Origin: a virus
Taxonomy: Duplodnaviria; Caudoviricetes
IMG/VR virus record: IMGVR_UViG_3300032227_000555
Span: 1-30,744 of that record
Strand: one strand, 5' to 3'
DNA: 30,744 nt
The notes under the pieces are model-generated. The model was not told the origin of the DNA. It saw only the letters and a list, made by a program, of their open reading frames with translations, and made no database searches. Numbering within the stretch: the stretch's first letter is position 1; every line of letters starts with the position of its first letter. Shown piece after piece: positions 5,835 to 30,744 of this stretch. The translations under genes were made by a program, and so were the position numbers.

Positions 5835-6058
5835 AATTTTTCTATTTCATGTTTAACTTCTTGCCAATAATTATGTCTATTATAATATCCGTTTGTAAAA
5901 TATGCTTCTTCTATTAATTCTTCAACTGCAATTAATGCACATTGTTTAGCACTATTATTATCCTCAATCCATTTATGTATAATACTATCCCATTTAGTCA
6001 TGTAATTATATTCAAAAAATTTATCTACTAATTCTTCTGCTTTTTCTTTAGGTGTCAT
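5831..6058 (-). CDS. Hypothetical phage protein
   Basis: MTPKEKAEELV...AKQCALIAVEE...YWQEVKHEIEKL. Confidence 0.7.
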   Translation of the reverse strand: MTPKEKAEELVDKFFEYNYMTKWDSIIHKWIEDNNSAKQCALIAVEELIEEAYFTNGYYNRHNYWQEVKHEIEKL

Positions 6059-7391: not shown

Positions 7392-8130
7392 CTTCTATTT
7401 GTTTTAAAAGTTTATGTTCTAACTCTTGTAAATTTTCAAAGTTCTTTTGATGATTCCCTTTTTTTTCTAAAGGTTGATGATAAATAATCTCATCGTTCCA
7501 ACATTTATTATTTAAATAAGTAGATGGATTTTTTCTAAATTTAATATCTTGATTTGCATTTACATAATCTTCTATCGTAGATAAAATATTATCAATATCA
7601 TTTCCAGATAATTTATTCCAAGTCTTCTCGCATTTAGATCTATCTAATTTTTTATTATAACAATCCCAAAAGAAATTAAAATCATTTTCGCGTTGTATAC
7701 TTGTAGATTTGTATACTTGTATATTTGTATTATTGTAAATTGGTATATCTATACTATCAATGCTTTGTATAGTGCTTTCCTTTTGCTTTGTACCATGCTT
7801 TATTAATGCTTTATCAAGTGCTTTACTATGTGCTTTATCAAAATTTGATAGAGCAACTATGTTAGCAGAATACTGATTTTTACTTCTTTCAACCACAATA
7901 ATTAACCCAATTTCTTCAAGGTCATTAAGAGTATTGATATAAGTATTATGAGATTTAATACCGATGGCTTCCATCGACATCATGCTTGGAAGACCAAATT
8001 TTTTCTTCCATCCTAACCTGTTACAATGCTCAATAATAAAGAAATATAAAGCACAATGATTTGGCTTTATTTTATCTGGATTATCATAAGCATAGTCCCA
8101 GAAGTTTCTTGACAAACTATATATGTCCAT
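7357..8130 (-). CDS. Replication initiator / replisome organizer
   Basis: N-terminal winged-helix-like region, repetitive linker, C-terminal FNFFWDCYNKK...RKNPSTYLNNKCWNDE. Confidence 0.8.
   Translation of the reverse strand: MDIYSLSRNFWDYAYDNPDKIKPNHCALYFFIIEHCNRLGWKKKFGLPSMMSMEAIGIKSHNTYINTLNDLEEIGLIIVVERSKNQYSANIVALSNFDKAHSKALDKALIKHGTKQKESTIQSIDSIDIPIYNNTNIQVYKSTSIQRENDFNFFWDCYNKKLDRSKCEKTWNKLSGNDIDNILSTIEDYVNANQDIKFRKNPSTYLNNKCWNDEIIYHQPLEKKGNHQKNFENLQELEHKLLKQIEDGTFNNPFSRK
7693..7855. repeat. Putative replication origin: 7 TGCTTT iterons plus 6 TTGTA repeats of 8-bp period
   Basis: TGCTTT at 7761, 7773, 7784, 7796, 7807, 7819, 7831; TTGTA at 7693, 7701, 7709, 7717, 7725, 7733. Confidence 0.7.
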
Positions 8131-20583: not shown

Positions 20584-21154
20584 TTTCTAATATGTTTAAA
20601 ATTTGACTTACTAATTCTTCATCTTTAATATCAGGCAATAATTCCAAACTTAATTTATCAGCAAAATAACCCTCAATAGAAAACCCCTTAATCTCACCAC
20701 TCTTTGCTTTAGCCCAAATTTCTTCATTGTCTGCTTTCATTGATACCATCCAAGTTCCTTTAGGTAAACTAAACCCGTATGATTTAGATTTATCCATTTC
20801 AGGATCTGTAATTAGCCAAGATTCAACCAATGACATACCATCTATTTTAGTTTTATGTTGTAATGTGGCATTAGATTGGTTTCCATTCTTTAAATACATT
20901 TGGCTCGCTTGTTCTACCGTACTTTCGCTAAAATAAACTTGGTATTTAGATTTTCCATCTTTACGGAAAATCATTTTATTAGGGATTAATGCTGGTCCCA
21001 TTAATATTTTCTTTTCTGTATCTACTTCGGCCAAATTCATTTCATACTCTTTTGCCAAAGTAATAAAGTTGCTTTCAATCGCTGGTCTATCCACCAAACT
21101 TATGGCTTCAATTCCATCTTCGTCACTAGAAATAATTAATTCGATTATTTTCAT
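20576..21154 (-). CDS. Prohead protease (XkdF-like putative serine peptidase)
   Basis: AISLVDRPAIE, GPALIP, ATLQH, VESW, GTW, KGFSIEG. Confidence 0.85.
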   Translation of the reverse strand: MKIIELIISSDEDGIEAISLVDRPAIESNFITLAKEYEMNLAEVDTEKKILMGPALIPNKMIFRKDGKSKYQVYFSESTVEQASQMYLKNGNQSNATLQHKTKIDGMSLVESWLITDPEMDKSKSYGFSLPKGTWMVSMKADNEEIWAKAKSGEIKGFSIEGYFADKLSLELLPDIKDEELVSQILNILENE

Positions 21155-21159
21155 AACGT

Positions 21160-21183
21160 ATAAACGTATATTTTATATTTTGT
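21160..21183 (-). promoter_or_regulatory. Putative late promoter ACAAAA-N11-CGTTTAT
   Basis: Motif copy before the head operon. Confidence 0.65.
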
Positions 21184-21193
21184 TACATTTTCA

Positions 21194-22687
21194 TTATCCT
21201 AAACTTGCAGACATAACCTTATTTCTGTCCAAAGATTGTTGAGAACTTATTTCAGATGAAACGACATAAGCCTTTATTGGTTCTTGATTTTGACCGACTA
21301 CCTGTGCAATTTGATTAACACCACTTGTACCAACTACGTTAAATTGTGGTGCAGTTGAATAACTTGGTGTCATTTGTTGATTTCCAAAAGACATATCACT
21401 ACCACTTGCAGTACCTGATCTAATATCTTGAATACCTTTTGCACCAGCAGCTATTGCAGAAGCAACACTAATACCTCCAGCAACTAATTCAGTAATTCCT
21501 AATGGACTTACATACCCATATTTAGCTGCATTTTTTTGAGTATTAATAATAATTGAAGCAACTGCAGCAGATTGTTCTAAAATAATTCCTGCAATTGCTA
21601 ATTCTTTATTATCTCCTGCAATTTGTCTTAAACCTTGACCAATACGCATCATATTTGAAACAAATGCTTCTTGAATTGCAGATTTTGTATCTGCTTCCGC
21701 TTGATTAATAGCAATTATTTCATCAGACTTCTTTTTTTCTAATGCTATTTCAGTATCAATTCTATTTGTTAATGATTTAAATAAATTTTGGCTTACATTT
21801 TTTTGACCTTCTTGTAATTTATCTACATACCCTGTATTTAATTCATTTACATTTGATAATCTATTATTATAATTTTTCTCATCATCTTCTTTTGCTTTAT
21901 CGAGTAATTTTTGATTCCTTTCTAATAAATCTTTAATATCTTGGTCTTGCTTTTCACTTGCTTCTAATCTTGCTTTTCTTCTTTTTTCTAATTCCTCTTT
22001 TTCAGTTTTGGTTTGTTGCTTTGCTCCATTCTCAAAGTTTTTTACCGAAATATCATAATTCTTGCTAAAATCGGTTACAGATGCTTTGGCATCTTTCCAA
22101 GCACCACTAAAATCTCCTTTAATAAATTTAACTACTGAACTTCCAAGACTTCCTAATGATTGAATGACTGCCGTGACTGATCCGTAAACAACTTGCATTG
22201 CTTTTGATACCATAGGCAAAGCACTAATAGCCAAGTCAACTAACGTATTAAATAATGGTTCAATGGCTGCAAAAACTCCATTAAATATTTTTTCTAATCC
22301 AGTAAATAAAGGTTGTAATTTTTTGACTGATTTTTCATTGTCATTAAATGCAGTAACTAAACCACCTACTAAAGAAACAAGTAATCCAATACCTGTTGCT
22401 TTTAATGCTGAACCAAATGATTGAGTTGCAACTTTTGCTTTATTAATTGCTCCGCCAAGTTCTCCCAAAGGACCACCAGCCATTTGTAAAGTATCAACCC
22501 AATCAGAAGACACATTTTTAGCAGATTTAATTTTATCTTCTAAATCATCAATTTGATTATAAAGATTTTTGAATGCCTCTGTGCCAACTTCTGTACTTTT
22601 TAATTCTTTCTTTAATTCTTTTAATTGCTTAATAGATCCACCAATATTATTGGATACATTTAAATCAACTTCTATTTCTGTTGCCAT
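21194..22687 (-). CDS. Tail tape measure protein
   Basis: 497 aa, helical/coiled coil with ALKATGIGLLVSLVG hydrophobic segments. Confidence 0.8.
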   Translation of the reverse strand: MATEIEVDLNVSNNIGGSIKQLKELKKELKSTEVGTEAFKNLYNQIDDLEDKIKSAKNVSSDWVDTLQMAGGPLGELGGAINKAKVATQSFGSALKATGIGLLVSLVGGLVTAFNDNEKSVKKLQPLFTGLEKIFNGVFAAIEPLFNTLVDLAISALPMVSKAMQVVYGSVTAVIQSLGSLGSSVVKFIKGDFSGAWKDAKASVTDFSKNYDISVKNFENGAKQQTKTEKEELEKRRKARLEASEKQDQDIKDLLERNQKLLDKAKEDDEKNYNNRLSNVNELNTGYVDKLQEGQKNVSQNLFKSLTNRIDTEIALEKKKSDEIIAINQAEADTKSAIQEAFVSNMMRIGQGLRQIAGDNKELAIAGIILEQSAAVASIIINTQKNAAKYGYVSPLGITELVAGGISVASAIAAGAKGIQDIRSGTASGSDMSFGNQQMTPSYSTAPQFNVVGTSGVNQIAQVVGQNQEPIKAYVVSSEISSQQSLDRNKVMSASLG

Positions 22688-22824
22688 TTTATTAATCTAT
22701 TAATTTGTCTAAATCCTTTTTTCCAAGTCTTTGGAATTTCATTTTTACCTTTTGCAATCTCTATTGATTCGTGTACTCCGTAATGATTATTAATCATTAG
22801 CAAGTCTAATATGTTCTTTATCAT
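22672..22824 (-). CDS. Small basic protein upstream of the tape measure gene (50 aa, not in ORF track)
   Basis: MIKNILDLLMINNHYGVHESIEIAKGKNEIPKTWKKGFRQINRLIKWQQK; overlaps the TMP start. Confidence 0.55.
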   Translation of the reverse strand: MIKNILDLLMINNHYGVHESIEIAKGKNEIPKTWKKGFRQINRLIKWQQK

Positions 22825-22847
22825 AAACGTAATTTTTAAGTTTTTGT
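22823..22847 (-). promoter_or_regulatory. Putative late promoter ACAAAA-N12-CGTTTAT
   Basis: Motif copy; its last bases overlap the ATG at 22824. Confidence 0.55.
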
Positions 22848-22848
22848 C

Positions 22849-23472
22849 TTAATTTCTATTGATATAATAGAATGGATTTTCGTGCGAATAAAATGAATCA
22901 TCAATTAAATAGTTAATTGGTTTTAAATATTTAAACCAATCATGCGCCCACATATTAACATCTAAATCTTTAATCTGATTATAAAAATCTAATAACATTG
23001 GTGATGGAATGACATAAAAATTATCATCGCATAAATTAGATACATCGCCACATCTTGACCTTGAAGAAATATTAAAACTATTAGGATCAAATGTAAAATT
23101 TGTAATGTTTTGCATGAATATTAAATCGTACCTTGTCAATAAAATGTAATTAAACTTCTGATAATCAGAATCTAAAATCAATTTTAATAAATTCTTAAAT
23201 GTATTATTTCGAGATCTCCAATTAGCATCTAAATCATTAGGAATATTTACTAAATCAGTAGTTACAATTCTTTCAATATTATAATCAGTAATTAAATTTT
23301 CAAGTACTGGCGAATTATAAGTAGATGCAAAAAATGTGCAATCAAAATGATCAAATATAAACCATTTATTATTCTCAATAGATTTTCTATAATCTACGGT
23401 TGGCCTCCACCCCATCCAATGGTTTAAATTTTCTTTGTAATGTATACCAAATAATCCGACTAATATTTTCAT
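22849..23472 (-). CDS. Putative glycosyltransferase-like protein (GT-A-like)
   Basis: MKILVGLFG first strand, YILLTRYDL (RxD) motif, CDDNF, late H-x-W. Confidence 0.5.
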   Translation of the reverse strand: MKILVGLFGIHYKENLNHWMGWRPTVDYRKSIENNKWFIFDHFDCTFFASTYNSPVLENLITDYNIERIVTTDLVNIPNDLDANWRSRNNTFKNLLKLILDSDYQKFNYILLTRYDLIFMQNITNFTFDPNSFNISSRSRCGDVSNLCDDNFYVIPSPMLLDFYNQIKDLDVNMWAHDWFKYLKPINYLIDDSFYSHENPFYYINRN

Positions 23473-24389
23473 AATAATGGTGAGTTTAAACCTGCTTTTT
23501 GAACTTCGTTATAATAGTAATAGCTTGCTCGATTTTTATCTATATCTAAATTTAAATTGTAAGGTAATTTATCAATGTATTGTCCTTTGTAAAACATACC
23601 GCTATTTGAATCAGGAACCCCAGCGTTATGAAGAATTTTGTAATTAATTGAATCCGATATATCGCTTGTGGACCACCCAAAATCTAATTCCTTAACTACC
23701 TTTGTTTGATGTCCAAAAAACCATGCATTGTAAAGCAATGACCACATCCCAGCAGTCCATTTTTGTATTGGATAATCATTTTCATATTTAGGTACATGAT
23801 AAGGTTCTTTATTTATAAAATATTGATATAAACTTATCGAATCTCTTTCAACCTTGTCCCAAAAATTAAAATCTGTTCCCTTTACTATGTATTGCGCTCC
23901 ACCACTATGATCGTTCATTAGTTTAGGAATTAAAGTATCAATGCCAACAATTCTGCACATATCAATCAATAAATCTTCTCCTTTTTGCATGATATAATCA
24001 TAGTTGATATAACTATTTGTATTGCTTAAATACCAAACCTTATCTTTTTCAAATTTTGAATAATCAGGTGTACTTGTAAATACTATGTCGCTATCATGCA
24101 AGAATAAAACTTCATCTTTTAAATGTGGATTTGATGCAAGATGTTGTTTCATCAAGTTAAAATAAATTGATGGGATATAACTTCCATTTTCTCTTGTGTC
24201 TTTATAGAAAAAAAATCGTACTGGATAATGTGTTTGTAAAATTCTCCACTTTGATAAATCCTGATTTTGGTAACCTAATAAAATATCAATTTGATTTGGA
24301 TTGATACCATTAGATATAAAATTATTAATGAACGTTTCGACTTGCCATAAGTAATAATCATTCGCAGGCTGACAACAGATATACCTCAT
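23469..24389 (-). CDS. Putative peptide O-glycosyltransferase (GT-A; GT95/GT96-like motifs)
   Basis: YYLWQ, FLHDSDIVF (DxD), GGAQY, WTAGMW, ILHNAG, FYKG. Confidence 0.6.
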   Translation of the reverse strand: MRYICCQPANDYYLWQVETFINNFISNGINPNQIDILLGYQNQDLSKWRILQTHYPVRFFFYKDTRENGSYIPSIYFNLMKQHLASNPHLKDEVLFLHDSDIVFTSTPDYSKFEKDKVWYLSNTNSYINYDYIMQKGEDLLIDMCRIVGIDTLIPKLMNDHSGGAQYIVKGTDFNFWDKVERDSISLYQYFINKEPYHVPKYENDYPIQKWTAGMWSLLYNAWFFGHQTKVVKELDFGWSTSDISDSINYKILHNAGVPDSNSGMFYKGQYIDKLPYNLNLDIDKNRASYYYYNEVQKAGLNSPLL

Positions 24390-24396
24390 ATAAAAA

Positions 24397-27333
24397 TTAA
24401 CTTGGGATTAATCCTCCATTTAATGATCCACCTAAAATAATTCCATTTGAAATATCTGTTGAAGATACGGTTACGGTAATTTGTGCTTGCACTCCTAATC
24501 CAGTTTGACTATTAGAAACAACTTGAAAACCATTATATTCAACACGGGGATTAGAACAACTTTGTCCGCTTTCTCCAGCTACCATTGTTATAACAAGTAC
24601 ATCACCTGCAATTACTGAAAAAGTTCCACTTTTACTTGAACTTAATAAAACATTAACCACAGAATTTGAATTTTTAGTAACACTAAATACACCTGTACCA
24701 CATGGACCACTTAAACCTGTAATACCATACCAATTTAAAATTACAGATGGCGGAATCGTGGTTGTCGATGTTGTGGTAGTTGATGCGGTTGTAGTTGTGG
24801 TGGTTGTTGGCGCAATGGTTGTAGTTGTAGTGGTTGTCGGTGATGCCGTTGTAGTTGTAGTCGTTGGCGCAATGGTTGTAGTCGTTGTATTAGTTATTAA
24901 ATTTTTAAGCCTTACAACAGTTGTATAATTTCCATAAGTATCAATATCAAATTCTTGATTGTCATTTAATTGCAATCTAATTCTAAAAGTTTCTTTCGTA
25001 TAACCATTATTAAATGGATTAATCATAAGTACTAATGCTTCTGTTCCATCTGCACTCATTTTGTAAGCTGACAATGGTGCTTGTCTATTATAAAGCATTA
25101 CTGGATAATTGGAATTATTTGCATCTGTATCCGATGTCCAATTACCATTAAAATATACTTGTGATCTTACCCAATTAGTATTGGCTGCAATAATATCTTT
25201 ATTTTGTTCTACTTGCCAATAACCTATATAAAGCCAATCATAAGTTCCATTATCTATCTCACTATTATTACCATAAATGTAAAATTCGGGTGTATATTCT
25301 TGTGGATATACATTAAATTCACCCCCATAAGTGTTAGGATTATCCCACATATACAGACCATCCATATAAGCAAATGCCCAAACTGCTAATGATTGTAAAA
25401 AAGATGGTGAATGAGTCGGCCTATAAATAACTTCTTGACCATTATATACTCCTTTTCTTTCAAATCCAAATTCAGAACTGTCAGGTAATGGCTCAAAAAA
25501 TCTCCAATTATATGCCTGTACTCTCTTTGATGAATAATCTTTTGAATTTTCAGTACCTATTTGAGCAATTATTTTTTTAGCAATGTCATAAGAATGAACT
25601 GCATTATAGAAATACCATTTAACAATTAAGTTATTACAATAATTAGTACAGAAAAATAAGCCAAATCCTTCAATTGCTCCTTCATATAAAGCATTATATG
25701 AACCCATTGATGTTCTTCCTATTGAACCATTAATATAATAGTTATGATAATCAGAATATAAAGAAGATGTTTTTGCTTGTGCTATTGATAAACTTGGATC
25801 TACATTATTCCAACCTCCATATAATCCAGCTTGATAAATTCCCTCTGCATAAATACTAAATTTTGGAATGACACCACCTAAACTTGCCCAATTATTAGCA
25901 ATTGAATATGCTTTACAATTTGCCCACAAAGCACTATATGCTCTACCTACATTTATGCGACTTCTTCCTGGTCCTACAACTTGCTCAGCATCATGTTGAA
26001 TGTATGCTGAATGAATACTATTCCAATTATTATATGGATTGTTACCAGTAGGATTAAAAAAATTTAAATAATTTCTTGCTGGTGATATATCAATATAACC
26101 TGTCCCTTCATATGGTACTGTGGTCCATTTATAAGGATTTATTTGGTCATACGTTTTTTGAATAATACCATTATTGAAAGACCAATTGGCTCTATCATTA
26201 GTATTTGTAATTAGTAATGATTCAAGTAAAGCACAGCACCATGAAGCATCTGTGGGTGAATCTGTAATATAATTAGAATCAGATGTAGCCCCATTAGATT
26301 TTATAAATGCAGTTGGACTTCTAATATAAGCATCAGCATCAATTGTATGTTTATTGGCATAAGCAACAACTTGAGAAATATTATTAGAATTAGATCCATT
26401 ACTTTCGTATGCCATTCGATAATTGGCATTTAATTGAGATACTTGACCATCTATTTTATTTTTAAAATATGATTCTGTCAATTTTGTTAATCCTTTATTT
26501 TGTCTTTTGGGATCTCTAAAAGTTCGTGATGAAACACCTTGAACTCCTGAATCCTTTATGACCATATCTAATAATGGATTAGTCAATGTCATAAACTCTT
26601 TTGCATAACCATTTTTATCTTTTATTGGCAAAGCATCAGGCATTCTTCTAAAAAATGATGGATATTCATTTGATGATGTGGGGATCAAATAATCAGGTCT
26701 AAAAAAATAGTTTACTTTACCTATGGTTGTAACTCGATTAAAATCTGCTGCAATATGAATAAATGCAGTCATTAATCTACCATATGGAAAACCCGGTACT
26801 CTTAAAGTTGGATTCCATTCGCCAGTTCTAACAACTAAATCAAATCCTTTCATTGCTGATAAATTTATGTTAGTTATCGCAACATCACTAATTACTCCAC
26901 TATCTATTAACCATTTTTTTGGATAATTATAATCTCTTGTGTACCAAAAATTATCGGTAAGCAATAATGTAGATGCATTTAAAACTAAATTTGTTCCACC
27001 AATAAAATTTTCATTATTGCTATTGGAAATTTGTTCTCCCGTATTATAATTTATTATCGATTCATCGACAAAAGTAACATCGTTACTACTTAATAATAAT
27101 TCAGTTATTGTTCCAACAATTTTACCATCACTCCCAAGTGTTACATAATAGGATTTAAACTGCGTAGGTATAACGTAATTACCTGCGGAAGCCAAAATCG
27201 TTTTTGCCTCATTCGTGTAAAATATTGTTGTTGAATTTAATAGATTATTATTTGCGTACAATATTTGTGAATCCACATCAGTCAATGGATTAATCAATTT
27301 TGTGCGTGCATCACTTATGCTTGAAAATGCCAT
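24397..27333 (-). CDS. Large tail-associated/receptor-binding protein with C-terminal poly-Thr stalk
   Basis: 978 aa, aromatic/Asn-rich core, 50-aa Thr tract, small beta-rich tip domain. Confidence 0.6.
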   Translation of the reverse strand: MAFSSISDARTKLINPLTDVDSQILYANNNLLNSTTIFYTNEAKTILASAGNYVIPTQFKSYYVTLGSDGKIVGTITELLLSSNDVTFVDESIINYNTGEQISNSNNENFIGGTNLVLNASTLLLTDNFWYTRDYNYPKKWLIDSGVISDVAITNINLSAMKGFDLVVRTGEWNPTLRVPGFPYGRLMTAFIHIAADFNRVTTIGKVNYFFRPDYLIPTSSNEYPSFFRRMPDALPIKDKNGYAKEFMTLTNPLLDMVIKDSGVQGVSSRTFRDPKRQNKGLTKLTESYFKNKIDGQVSQLNANYRMAYESNGSNSNNISQVVAYANKHTIDADAYIRSPTAFIKSNGATSDSNYITDSPTDASWCCALLESLLITNTNDRANWSFNNGIIQKTYDQINPYKWTTVPYEGTGYIDISPARNYLNFFNPTGNNPYNNWNSIHSAYIQHDAEQVVGPGRSRINVGRAYSALWANCKAYSIANNWASLGGVIPKFSIYAEGIYQAGLYGGWNNVDPSLSIAQAKTSSLYSDYHNYYINGSIGRTSMGSYNALYEGAIEGFGLFFCTNYCNNLIVKWYFYNAVHSYDIAKKIIAQIGTENSKDYSSKRVQAYNWRFFEPLPDSSEFGFERKGVYNGQEVIYRPTHSPSFLQSLAVWAFAYMDGLYMWDNPNTYGGEFNVYPQEYTPEFYIYGNNSEIDNGTYDWLYIGYWQVEQNKDIIAANTNWVRSQVYFNGNWTSDTDANNSNYPVMLYNRQAPLSAYKMSADGTEALVLMINPFNNGYTKETFRIRLQLNDNQEFDIDTYGNYTTVVRLKNLITNTTTTTIAPTTTTTTASPTTTTTTTIAPTTTTTTTASTTTTSTTTIPPSVILNWYGITGLSGPCGTGVFSVTKNSNSVVNVLLSSSKSGTFSVIAGDVLVITMVAGESGQSCSNPRVEYNGFQVVSNSQTGLGVQAQITVTVSSTDISNGIILGGSLNGGLIPS
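24745..24894 (-). repeat. Mucin-like Thr tract (Tn-IAP units)
   Basis: TNTTTTTIAPTTTTTTASPTTTTTTTIAPTTTTTTTASTTTTSTTTIPPS. Confidence 0.95.
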
Positions 27334-27334
27334 A

Positions 27335-30010
27335 TTATTTTAGAGTATAAAAGATTGTAGATCCATTTGATGGTGGAGTCGTTGTAGTTGTAGTCGTTGT
27401 ACTTGTTGATGTAGTACTTGTAGGTGCAATAGTTGTAGTGGTTGTGGTTGTTGTTCCACATTGTCCAATCATTGTCATATAAGATGCACCCGTACCGCCT
27501 AATGTTTCGTATTGAGCACAAACAATAGCACCATTTCCTATATTAACTCTTGTAAATATAGTACCATCACAACTTGTGTAAGAAATTGTTCTATTTGAAC
27601 CTGACTGATTTTGATAACTTTCGCAAGGGAATGTAGGTCTTGGAGTACTTGTTGTCGTAGTTGTACAGAATGAAGCGTATAAAGTTGTTGCAATATCAGT
27701 ATAAGCATTACAATTATTACCATTATAAACCCTAATTACATAGTTTTTAGTGGCAGATTGGTTCATAAAATTAGTCTGATAAGCCATATAACCATTGATT
27801 ATATAATTATCAGGCATACTACAACCCGTATTTGGACAAGTAAACGTAGTACCTTCACATACTTTATACCTATCTCCATTAACAACATTGGTTAATGCGA
27901 TAACTCCATATTGATTTGTGTCACAATTTGGTTGAATTATTACAGATTCAAAGGTAGGATTAGGTATTGCAGTTGTCGTCGTAGTCGTTGTACTTGTAGT
28001 GGTTGTTGATGTTGTTGTAGTCGTTGTAGAATCTAATGAAATATTTCTAAAATCAGACATTAACTCAAAACTTGTTTCTCCAGTAGTTAATTCCGTTTGA
28101 TAAGAATTTATAATATACCTTTTATCTCTTATGATTAATTTGTCATTTAATGCAAGTTTAGATAATAATGAAATAGGCATAAATGCTTTTAATTTCAATA
28201 ATCTTGCTTTTTGATTAAATGTGTTTGAAAGGTAAGCCGAATAAAAATTAGAAAATAATGAATTAGGCTCAATTTTGTCAGTAAAGCTTGATTGCTCTGC
28301 TCCCCAATTTATAGTATTAACGACCGAAGACACTAATGTATCTTGTCCGAATAAATTATAAGTTGTAACAGTTGCACTATGTGTACCATCATTAAAATGA
28401 AAATGTTGGCCACCTGATAATGTTTGAATAACTCCATAATCGTATAAGATAACAGGCTTAGGAATATAAGCATTTGTATCAGCTTTAATTGAGTACCCTA
28501 CTTGAAAATTAGAATTTGTAAATTTACTAAATGGCATATTCTCAAATGGTAGTTCAATTGAATATTCATCCCCATCATTATCAACTTGGTATTTTAAATT
28601 CCCATAAGGTATATCGGATTGAGATAAAAAAGCAGTCGCCAATAAATTTTCACATTCCTCATATTTAAAATTAATTGTCTTGTAAGGTTTTACTCTTTCC
28701 AAATCTATATCATCAGTTTGACAATATTTAGTAATGTCATAATTTTTACCTTCTGAATACCAATCTTCTAACTGCTGAATTTTATAATTAATTCCATCAT
28801 TAGAATAACAAGTAAGATTAAACATTTTTAATAATCCACTAAAAAAATCTTCTGCTTTAAGTTCAGGCATATAATCAGCCACATTTAAAGTAGTTGTTAT
28901 TGTTTGTGGTGTGCTTTGAGTTGCAGTAACTTCAATAACTGGTATTGATCCATTATTAATTTCAAAATGATATTCAGATGTAAATACTATTGGTGTTAAT
29001 GATGATACATAAAATGTATAAATTCCTGAATCTACAAAAGGAACATTTAAACGTAATGGTGTTCCTGTTGCATTAGTTGTATTTGTTTGTTCATTTAATT
29101 TAACTCCATTTTTATAAACAAAAAAATCAAATGAAATACCACCACCACTTGTAAAATTAAAATCTATGTACGAAAAATTTACAAAATTAGGTGCAATAGG
29201 TTGAGTAAAATTTAATGAATTAGCTCCAACATTAAAAATACCAGTTGTACTTGATTGAAAATCTATTTGATTTGCAGTTCCTTTTTGTATAAATTTATCA
29301 GTATTTTTTAACCAAAGAAAAGCATTTGTAAACTTGGGATTAGATAAAAATGAACCTTCTAATGTGATTCCTAGTTGGTTTGCAATAGATTCTAATATCT
29401 TACTTATTCTTATAGCTGGGAATAAATCATTATAATAAATTGGGTGTGATTGTTTTTGTATGTCCCAATTACTTTGGCTAGATCCATTAGTATTATATTG
29501 CCAAACATTTAATGAAGAAATCAAAGGAAATTTAACATTATTAGTAACGCCACTTATAATTCTTGCTTTTACTTCTGCACCTGAATAGTTAAAATTATAA
29601 GCCGAATAATCAAAATCCCTTAAAAATCTATTATTAAATTTATCCTTTAATGTTATTAGAGATCCAAAGAAAGTTAATGTATAATTATCAATATTACCTT
29701 TTTTATAACTTGCTTTTTCTAATTGAATCTTCCCTTTCCTAAATGTTAATGTGTCAAGTTCAATGTAAGCATCTTTTCTTTTGGTTGCATTAAATCCATT
29801 ATCTAAACTATTTTCATACCAATGTTTAAATATTATGTTGTTGTTCTTCGTTGCTGGAACCGTAAACGATTGGGTGAAATCCGTAAAGACTTTTGATATA
29901 TCATTAATGTTTTGGATTGAACTATTGATTGATATGTTTTCATCCTCAAATAATTCAAGTCTTTTTGCAAAACCATCATCGCCATAAACATAAATGCTTA
30001 CATTAATCAT
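27335..30010 (-). CDS. Tail tip/hub protein with Thr-rich, Cys-rich C-terminal extension
   Basis: LELFEDENISI...FTQSFTVPATKNN N-terminus typical of tail hubs; three Thr tracts follow ...FELMSDF. Confidence 0.7.
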   Translation of the reverse strand: MINVSIYVYGDDGFAKRLELFEDENISINSSIQNINDISKVFTDFTQSFTVPATKNNNIIFKHWYENSLDNGFNATKRKDAYIELDTLTFRKGKIQLEKASYKKGNIDNYTLTFFGSLITLKDKFNNRFLRDFDYSAYNFNYSGAEVKARIISGVTNNVKFPLISSLNVWQYNTNGSSQSNWDIQKQSHPIYYNDLFPAIRISKILESIANQLGITLEGSFLSNPKFTNAFLWLKNTDKFIQKGTANQIDFQSSTTGIFNVGANSLNFTQPIAPNFVNFSYIDFNFTSGGGISFDFFVYKNGVKLNEQTNTTNATGTPLRLNVPFVDSGIYTFYVSSLTPIVFTSEYHFEINNGSIPVIEVTATQSTPQTITTTLNVADYMPELKAEDFFSGLLKMFNLTCYSNDGINYKIQQLEDWYSEGKNYDITKYCQTDDIDLERVKPYKTINFKYEECENLLATAFLSQSDIPYGNLKYQVDNDGDEYSIELPFENMPFSKFTNSNFQVGYSIKADTNAYIPKPVILYDYGVIQTLSGGQHFHFNDGTHSATVTTYNLFGQDTLVSSVVNTINWGAEQSSFTDKIEPNSLFSNFYSAYLSNTFNQKARLLKLKAFMPISLLSKLALNDKLIIRDKRYIINSYQTELTTGETSFELMSDFRNISLDSTTTTTTSTTTTSTTTTTTTAIPNPTFESVIIQPNCDTNQYGVIALTNVVNGDRYKVCEGTTFTCPNTGCSMPDNYIINGYMAYQTNFMNQSATKNYVIRVYNGNNCNAYTDIATTLYASFCTTTTTSTPRPTFPCESYQNQSGSNRTISYTSCDGTIFTRVNIGNGAIVCAQYETLGGTGASYMTMIGQCGTTTTTTTTIAPTSTTSTSTTTTTTTTPPSNGSTIFYTLK
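27368..28030 (-). repeat. Three poly-Thr/Ser tracts separated by Cys-rich domains
   Basis: Tracts at about 27971-28030, 27644-27664 and 27368-27454. Confidence 0.9.
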
Positions 30011-30744
30011 ATTACATTATTTAATAAATTGTAAGCATATTCAAAATCAATGGTATAATTGATATTCTTATCTTTTAATGTAGTTTTTAAATCCGTTTGA
30101 TTTGTTTTTAATGTTACTGGCTTGTTATCTAATAATACAACTTCACTTAACATTAAATCTTGAATTAAATCTGAATAATTCTGTGGCACAAAACCTGTGT
30201 TTAAAGTTATCGTTTGTCTTGCATTGTAATTAAATGCTTTTGTTTGTCCTTGATAAACATTGTAATTAAAATTACTTGGAAGCAAATTATACATTGTACT
30301 TGTAACCGTTAATTGATTGCTCTGTGCTTTAAAGAATGTTAAAAACTGCCATCCACCAAATCTATTAATAAATGAGCAAACAACAGGTGTATATTTAGGC
30401 TCACAAATTGGAATAATATTAAATATTGTTGAATATGTTAATATATTATTTACATAATACTTTAATGTCGCTATTGTTCCATCATTATAGTTTGAACTTG
30501 ATGTGGTTAATGGTACTTTATACAAGTAATTTTTAGCTGATAATGTGATTGGTGCTACTGATGTTGTAAGTACAAAGTTACCACGAATATCCTTGTATTC
30601 AATGTCTAATCTTTCATTTGTATCCTTATTAATTAATACGTTTACATAAGGAATTTTACCCAATGTGTATTGTATTTCCTTTGTATTATCGCCTAATATA
30701 CAAAAATTATTGATTGGATTTGTTTGATTTATTCCACCTGTATA
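30007..30744 (-). CDS. 3' part of the junction-spanning tail protein (starts at 537)
   Basis: CEPKYTP..CSFINRFGGW..., LNTGFV..., YTIDFEYA; in frame through the overlap. Confidence 0.8.
   Translation of the reverse strand, partial: YTGGINQTNPINNFCILGDNTKEIQYTLGKIPYVNVLINKDTNERLDIEYKDIRGNFVLTTSVAPITLSAKNYLYKVPLTTSSSNYNDGTIATLKYYVNNILTYSTIFNIIPICEPKYTPVVCSFINRFGGWQFLTFFKAQSNQLTVTSTMYNLLPSNFNYNVYQGQTKAFNYNARQTITLNTGFVPQNYSDLIQDLMLSEVVLLDNKPVTLKTNQTDLKTTLKDKNINYTIDFEYAYNLLNNVI
30622..30744. repeat. Terminal direct repeat, copy 2
   Basis: Identical to 1..123. Confidence 0.97.

Follow-up and report, generated by a model that had tools for sequence, protein, structure and literature searches.

Poly-threonine proteins and predicted glycosyltransferases at one phage locus

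The stretch of DNA analysed here, 30,744 bp long and hereafter called the window (IMG/VR record IMGVR_UViG_3300032227_000555), is a complete phage genome with direct terminal repeats and a GC content of about 30%; all identified genes lie on the minus strand, and a terminase, a portal, a protease and an endolysin are recognised by Pfam and PHROGs. Our subject is a block of four genes. Two encode probable virion proteins of 891 and 978 amino acids (aa) with long threonine (Thr) tracts, and the next two encode proteins of 306 and 207 aa that are predicted to have glycosyltransferase (GT) folds. We propose that the 306-aa protein is a cytoplasmic, metal-dependent protein O-glycosyltransferase that likely adds the first sugar to Thr runs of particle proteins, with the tract as the acceptor tag. 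Considering that its model is of GT-A type with an invariant DxD motif and C-terminal His, and that the gene and the tracts are gained and lost together, we give this proposal a probability of roughly 0.7.

The 891-aa protein (27335..30010, minus strand, as for all features below) matches phrog_38559, a family of unannotated function, at E 1e-69. Its conserved N-terminal part of 650 aa is followed by small Cys-containing modules spaced by three Thr tracts: tract 1 (27953..28039; aa 658-686, 18 Thr in 29 residues), the short tract 2 (27632..27688; aa 775-793, 9 in 19) and tract 3 near the C-terminus (27356..27475; aa 846-885, 22 in 40). The protein is 29% identical to gp45 of Nonlabens phage P12024S, whose record mentions a BACON domain, and this match suggests a Bacteroidota host. 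The 978-aa protein (24397..27333) has no significant Pfam, PHROG or PDB sequence match. Its residues 1-812 are conserved in sister phages and precede tract 4 (24745..24894; aa 814-863, 33 Thr in 50) and a C-terminal module of 115 aa (24400..24744), for which no BLASTP match among the loci compared and no significant family match were found. An ortholog with 96% identity (L026/L339) is an 813-residue frame lacking both tract 4 and the C-terminal domain, which by this comparison are appended to the protein in the present phage. The original prediction spoke of two consecutive tail proteins with four poly-Thr tracts of up to 50 aa. The four tracts and the maximal length hold; neither protein carries a tail annotation, and the label is positional, given for their place upstream of a weakly tape-measure-like gene.

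A Tn-IAP unit is indeed shared by the two proteins, occurring twice in the tract of the 978-aa protein and once in the last tract of the 891-aa protein, and no Thr run of at least 5 residues is present in any other coding-strand frame of the genome. The tracts use mixed Thr codons (ACA 38, ACT 21, ACC 12, ACG 11), only 7 of 60 adjacent codon pairs are identical, where chance would give 19 (P 2e-4), and the tract copies are only 61-74% identical as DNA. Simple triplet slippage, considered as the origin of the tracts, is excluded because adjacent codons are alike less often than expected and the copies have diverged this far, which agrees with the earlier argument from mixed codons. Selection at the protein level would fit this codon mix, though a similar pattern would arise if slippage-prone DNA were selected against.

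The 306-aa protein is modelled as a GT-A-type enzyme

The 306-aa gene (23469..24389) begins 7 bp after the 978-aa gene and overlaps the 207-aa gene (22849..23472) at ATGA. This is the packing described at the outset, apart from the stop codon of the 306-aa gene, which is TGA and not TAA. Its product belongs to phrog_4417, an unannotated family that together with its relatives comprises 821 clusters at 50% identity, and is predicted to be a soluble initiating protein O-glycosyltransferase. The models of both small proteins are of GT-A type, as had been expected, and that of the 306-aa protein is nearest to glycogenin/GT8. The DxD motif (D99-S-D101; 24087..24095) comes after the fourth strand (E94-98); D99 is kept in 62 and D101 in all 63 of 63 homologs, and the C-terminal His, H254, is invariant (63/63). 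The motifs pointed out earlier were all located, namely YYLWQ (12), HDSD (98-101), QKWTAGMW (209), ILHNAGV (252) and FYKG (266). There is no membrane anchor: the first strand begins at residue 2, and the maximum 19-residue hydropathy is 1.35.

At the level of sequence, the 306-aa protein matches no Pfam family at E<=0.1, GT8 included, and is only 7-11% identical to GT8-like GT-A enzymes (glycogenin, the Skp1 alpha-galactosyltransferase and LgtC). Neither enzyme has an NCBIfam match at E<=1e-5, and PDB sequence searches returned chance matches only. In other proteins of the 306-aa family, the fusion partner is a GT2, GT6, GT7C-like, GT11, methyltransferase or radical SAM domain. In aquatic phages, the 306-aa domain is often fused or adjacent to a radical SAM/SPASM enzyme (P0167, P0317-P0361; L048, L066, L525, L527). 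In one phage (G008), a gene at L040:5897-7945 matches TIGR04414, the Aah/TibC-type protein O-heptosyltransferases, with 239 bits at a cut-off of 200; it lies near a 306-family gene and other GTs, and very long Thr/Ala/Pro proteins are encoded about 27 kb away.

The gene and the tracts occur together across phages

Co-occurrence with poly-Thr proteins had been put forward as a check, and it was found. We took 80 IMG/VR loci of the 306-aa family, left out 9 and used the 71 with at least 1.5 kb of upstream DNA, many of them close relatives. A tract, defined as at least 10 Thr in 15 residues, lies upstream at 65 of the 71 loci and downstream at 3, compared with 1 of 80 control loci. One locus lacks a nearby tract, but very large poly-Thr proteins are encoded about 27 kb away in the same genome. 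The upstream proteins at two family loci (L062, L063) have pure Ser/Thr tracts in place of poly-Thr; the acceptor may include Ser.

By tblastn, the family is found in 77 GenBank phage records, nearly all with Bacillota hosts. In 10 of the 10 cultured phages inspected, the gene immediately upstream of the enzyme contains a Thr tract or is closely followed by one, and in at least 8 of the 10 the enzyme gene is within the morphogenesis block; in two Herelleviridae it directly follows an Ig-domain or 'major tail' gene. Phages phiFL1A, iLp84, phiCTP1 and P1046 have the tract as the C-terminal tail of their major tail or capsid protein, 521B has a PTTV repeat, and in MA9V-3 the tract is an internal linker. 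Phage 9183 (L087 ~7790-7890) has it in the -1 frame behind CCCAAAA, not as a readthrough, and SA2 (L083 ~7700-7930) has a longer tract that follows in the +1 frame, at CCC-TAA; we take both sites to resemble programmed frameshift sites. In bIL285 (L088 ~5944-5985) the tract is past an in-frame TAA, where two relatives have a sense codon. Such tails in a shifted frame or past a stop would yield both tagged and untagged subunits. In bacterial genomes, after 8 of 80 loci were left out, a tract was present at 42 of 72, and at 36 of the 37 in Bacillota, whose prophages often carry it on two or three separate structural genes. That two or three separate genes can be tagged, and that in one phage about 27 kb separate the enzyme from the poly-Thr genes, argues for action in trans and against one hitchhiking cassette.

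We then compared relatives within four families picked by structural gene, with the enzyme status ignored (all trees were quick or FastTree trees). Summed over the four, enzyme and tract occur together in 78 loci, neither occurs in 136, the tract alone in 2 and the enzyme alone in none; one locus (L420) is counted in two families. In the 891-aa family, 16 loci have both, 28 neither and none the tract only, the positives forming a single clade; 28 of 72 loci were left out, among them 4 with tracts whose DNA stops short of the enzyme slot. The corresponding numbers for the phiFL1A tail tube are 12, 15 and 0, with 4 changes on the tree, at least 3 of them forced. For the iLp84 capsid they are 36, 32 and 2 (4 of 74 loci left out), with 3 changes, 1 forced, and capsids that are 94-100% identical have or lack the Thr tail in step with the enzyme gene. 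For the bIL285 capsid they are 14, 61 and 0, in one clade (5 of 80 left out). A genome-wide search of five complete enzyme-free sisters of the 891-aa family found no 306-aa gene (positive control 5/5).

The 207-aa gene occupies a swappable slot

The 207-aa protein is GT-A-like in its model and a candidate glycan-tailoring enzyme. Its best fold match is to GT6, the family of BoGT6a and the blood-group synthases, with other GT-A-like folds nearly tied. Its identity to GT6 proteins is only 12-15%, it has no Pfam match (GT6 included), and it carries an invariant R-[YF]-D at 114-116 (RYD), not DxD. The missing DxD is not decisive against GT6, because the top match, 4ayl, is a GT6 structure that the PDB title calls metal-independent. 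A profile comparison of the 306-aa and 207-aa proteins (hhalign) gave a probability of 0.8%, thus no detectable paralogy.

A contig of run X1, which may be where this DNA came from, covers 21000-30744 with zero differences from the window. Contigs of runs X2 (about 96% identical) and X3, both of the same study, join 22850 to 23471, so that the 207-aa gene is cleanly gone and the 306-aa gene kept; that of X2 also spans the 978-aa gene. Among the 16 enzyme-positive sisters of the 891-aa family, the 207-aa gene is present in 5, two others having too little DNA to tell, and elsewhere the slot after the 306-aa gene is empty or taken by a methyltransferase or a GT2-like gene. By gene content, the 207-aa gene is an accessory, dispensable cassette, and the arrangement reads as a constant initiator, the 306-aa protein, followed by a slot for variable tailoring. 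The 207-family gene also directly follows two poly-Thr genes at L526:1931-5347, in a 7-kb fragment that has no 306-family gene.

The original prediction, in which one enzyme primes and the other extends, is weakened as a fixed two-enzyme system by this dispensability, the swapped slot and the RYD motif. In its favour, 13 of 17 loci of the close 207 family lie downstream of a 306-family gene, and two natural proteins fuse the two domains. The pairing of primer and extender is only plausible; provided that the 306-aa protein initiates, we rate the chance that the 207-aa protein extends its product as slightly better than even. The alternative, that the 207-aa protein is an independent enzyme or a nucleotidyltransferase, is a doubtful though real possibility, against which stand the gene order, the fusions and the metal-independent GT6 as top fold match.

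A cellular branch in Bacteroidota lies in peptide-maturation clusters

The tract-negative loci of bacterial genomes come mostly from Chitinophaga, Mucilaginibacter, Pedobacter and Sphingobacterium, and the gene is often fused to a second domain. These Bacteroidota genes cluster on the tree (31 rows, support 92). Among the proteins encoded nearby are peptidase-containing ABC exporters, HlyD, LanC-like proteins, a lantibiotic dehydratase and radical SAM/SPASM maturases; at least one such marker gene is found at 27 of the 31 loci, a count that is partly circular because the profiles were seeded from nine of them. The cellular branch thus sits in clusters of the type that makes ribosomally synthesised and post-translationally modified peptides (RiPPs). 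This context does not depend on how phage genes are ordered, and it speaks for a peptide as the acceptor. In Sphingobacterium detergens (L457:2253-2498), an 81-aa candidate lanthipeptide precursor has a run of 13 Thr at its end, and at two Chitinophaga loci (L449:4179; L469:3832 and 4182) precursors end in a short Thr/Pro tail. These precursors are candidate glycosylated RiPPs.

Weighing the proposal against other explanations

Several observations weigh against the proposal that the 306-aa protein glycosylates the tracts. A GT-A fold, itself modelled, leaves donor and acceptor unspecified. The presence of the 891-aa and 978-aa proteins in the virion is deduced from gene position. Six of the 71 IMG/VR loci have no upstream tract: two are Ser/Thr-rich, one has tracts elsewhere and three are incomplete contigs without tracts. 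Two of the four structural families represent one event each, and most precursors of the RiPP branch have no Thr run. Furthermore, in pattern scans (80 of 123 loci used in each), 5 of the 80 viral (ACN)8 loci drawn at random had the enzyme within 10 kb, and none of the 80 controls did (Fisher p 0.06); counted by eye, about 43 of these (ACN)8 loci read as Thr. The enzyme predicts tracts; tracts do not predict the enzyme, because only these 5 loci have it nearby. Two near-complete proviruses (96% and 100%) retain a T7 tail without the enzyme. Both are of Lacticaseibacillus type (L591 and L593:7756-8412), with a T7-tailed tail protein and no 306-family gene, and may be recent losses or recombinants. 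Whole records of three further enzyme-negative poly-Thr fragments, 30-46% complete, were also searched, and no 306-family gene was found.

That most viral tracts have no enzyme nearby would also fit if the 306-aa enzyme acted on another target, such as the host surface for superinfection exclusion or DNA, and the poly-Thr stretches were unmodified linkers or recombination-prone DNA travelling along. Phage GT-A proteins are indeed known to modify DNA and host serotype, according to the available text of PMC12619734, and the (ACN)n tracts, 61-74% identical to each other, flank modules that are gained and lost. However, tracts are found on several separate genes of a genome, once at a distance of about 27 kb from the enzyme; a bare tail at the C-terminus has nothing to link; the gene sits in morphogenesis blocks and behind Ig-domain or 'major tail' genes; the protein has no membrane anchor; and the cellular branch belongs to peptide-maturation clusters. 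We therefore consider this explanation unlikely. Slightly less likely still is that the tracts are the target of the 306-aa protein but receive from it a group other than a neutral sugar, for example a sugar phosphate, or are bound by it without catalysis.

Comparison with known glycosylation systems

Virion glycosylation by phage-encoded GTs is described for mycobacteriophages (Freeman et al. 2023, as summarised in the available text of PMC12619734, PMC11256854 and PMC12691614, and cited in PMC12582341). The glycans are reported to sit at the C-termini of capsid and tail-tube subunits and to act as a shield, and by these summaries such glycosylation of tailed phages has so far been reported from mycobacteriophages. 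The window resembles that system in its two predicted GT-A-fold genes, and the Bacillota phages of the 306-aa family carry the tract at the same capsid and tail-tube C-termini as those summaries describe. It differs in the enzyme family, the dedicated tag and the hosts, which are mainly Bacteroidota-type and Bacillota. No mycobacteriophage (Che8-like) homolog of the 306-aa protein is among the 77 tblastn records, and the 207-aa protein gave no record. Apart from these differences in enzyme and tag, the proposed system would work like that of mycobacteriophages, and it is probably undescribed: the full-text literature searched, outside which most subscription journals lie, contains no description of the 306-aa family or of poly-Thr tags on phage proteins, and the available text of PMC6821194 has no phage poly-Thr tags. 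The supplements of Freeman et al. 2023 may contain further phage GT families.

In plants, HPAT1-3 (GT95, PF23452) and SGT1/SERGT (GT96) are initiating peptide O-glycosyltransferases, and GT95 is related to GT96 (PMC8012813, available text). The motifs of the 306-aa protein had been likened to these enzymes, and a distant kinship with HPAT/GT95 is suggested. One homolog (P0235) matches PF23452 over residues 9-230 of 307 at E 1.3e-4, and PF23452 is found in 10% of the members of a neighbour cluster in the ESM Atlas (score 0.97). Membership of GT95/GT96 is rejected, as the profile matches 2 of 69 diverse homologs with at best 21.9 bits, below the Pfam cut-off of 23.9 bits. It matches neither the window protein nor the other 101 members of alignment A1 (0/102), nor the cultured-phage homologs (0/10); a run on the phage's own genome found no match and is uninformative, the controls being silent too. 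There is no HPAT structure among the fold matches of the 306-aa protein. Unlike HPAT/SERGT, the 306-aa protein has no Golgi type II anchor, and its candidate acceptor is poly-Thr in place of hydroxyproline (Hyp) or Ser-Hyp4 in extensin motifs.

Genome setting

Downstream of the cassette lies a gene for a tape-measure-like protein of 497 aa (21194..22687), which forms its boundary. The GT genes were said to precede a tape measure gene; the position is right, and the assignment is weak (phrog_3336, E 3.2e-7). A 50-aa open reading frame (ORF) at 22672-22824 (minus strand), between the 207-aa and tape-measure-like genes, overlaps the start of the latter. The tape-measure-like gene (21194-22687) and part of the 891-aa gene (29020-29253) diverge strongly among co-occurring strains, and a freshwater metagenome run (X5) holds pieces of a close relative. 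A scan for promoters and terminators stayed at chance level.

Proposed mechanism and implications

We propose the following sequence of events. The nucleotide-sugar donor would come from the host, since a scan of the 32 larger ORFs of the complete genome annotated no sugar-synthesis gene. Using a divalent metal, the 306-aa protein would modify the Thr runs by O-glycosylation in the cytoplasm, either ahead of assembly or as it proceeds, and the resulting dense O-glycan coat would shield or stiffen the exposed stretches. The glycan would vary with what occupies the downstream slot (GT6-like, GT2-like, methyltransferase, radical SAM or none). In this phage, where the tracts space small appended modules, a stiffened spacer is plausible, and the earlier idea of a stalk presenting adhesins fits the window. 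As a general role we favour a surface coat, because the tracts of Bacillota phages are bare tags at the C-terminus, with no domain behind them that could be presented.

A broader reading, which we regard as an even bet, is that this is an unrecognised, widespread prokaryotic family of peptide O-glycosyltransferases distantly related to plant GT95/GT96. Its phage members would use a portable poly-Thr tag on whichever virion proteins are to receive a coat; a frameshift would sometimes restrict the tag to part of the subunits, and the glycan would be varied by swapping the downstream tailoring gene, while the cellular branch would glycosylate Bacteroidota RiPPs.

If our proposal is true, virion glycosylation extends to dairy, enterococcal, staphylococcal and freshwater phages held in culture collections, where the gene is annotated as hypothetical, and phrog_4417 and its relatives would be assigned a function. 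It would also give glycoengineering a cytoplasmic enzyme for Thr O-glycosylation together with a minimal tag, indicate glycosylated RiPPs in Bacteroidota, and have a bearing on the origin of the plant HPAT/SERGT enzymes.

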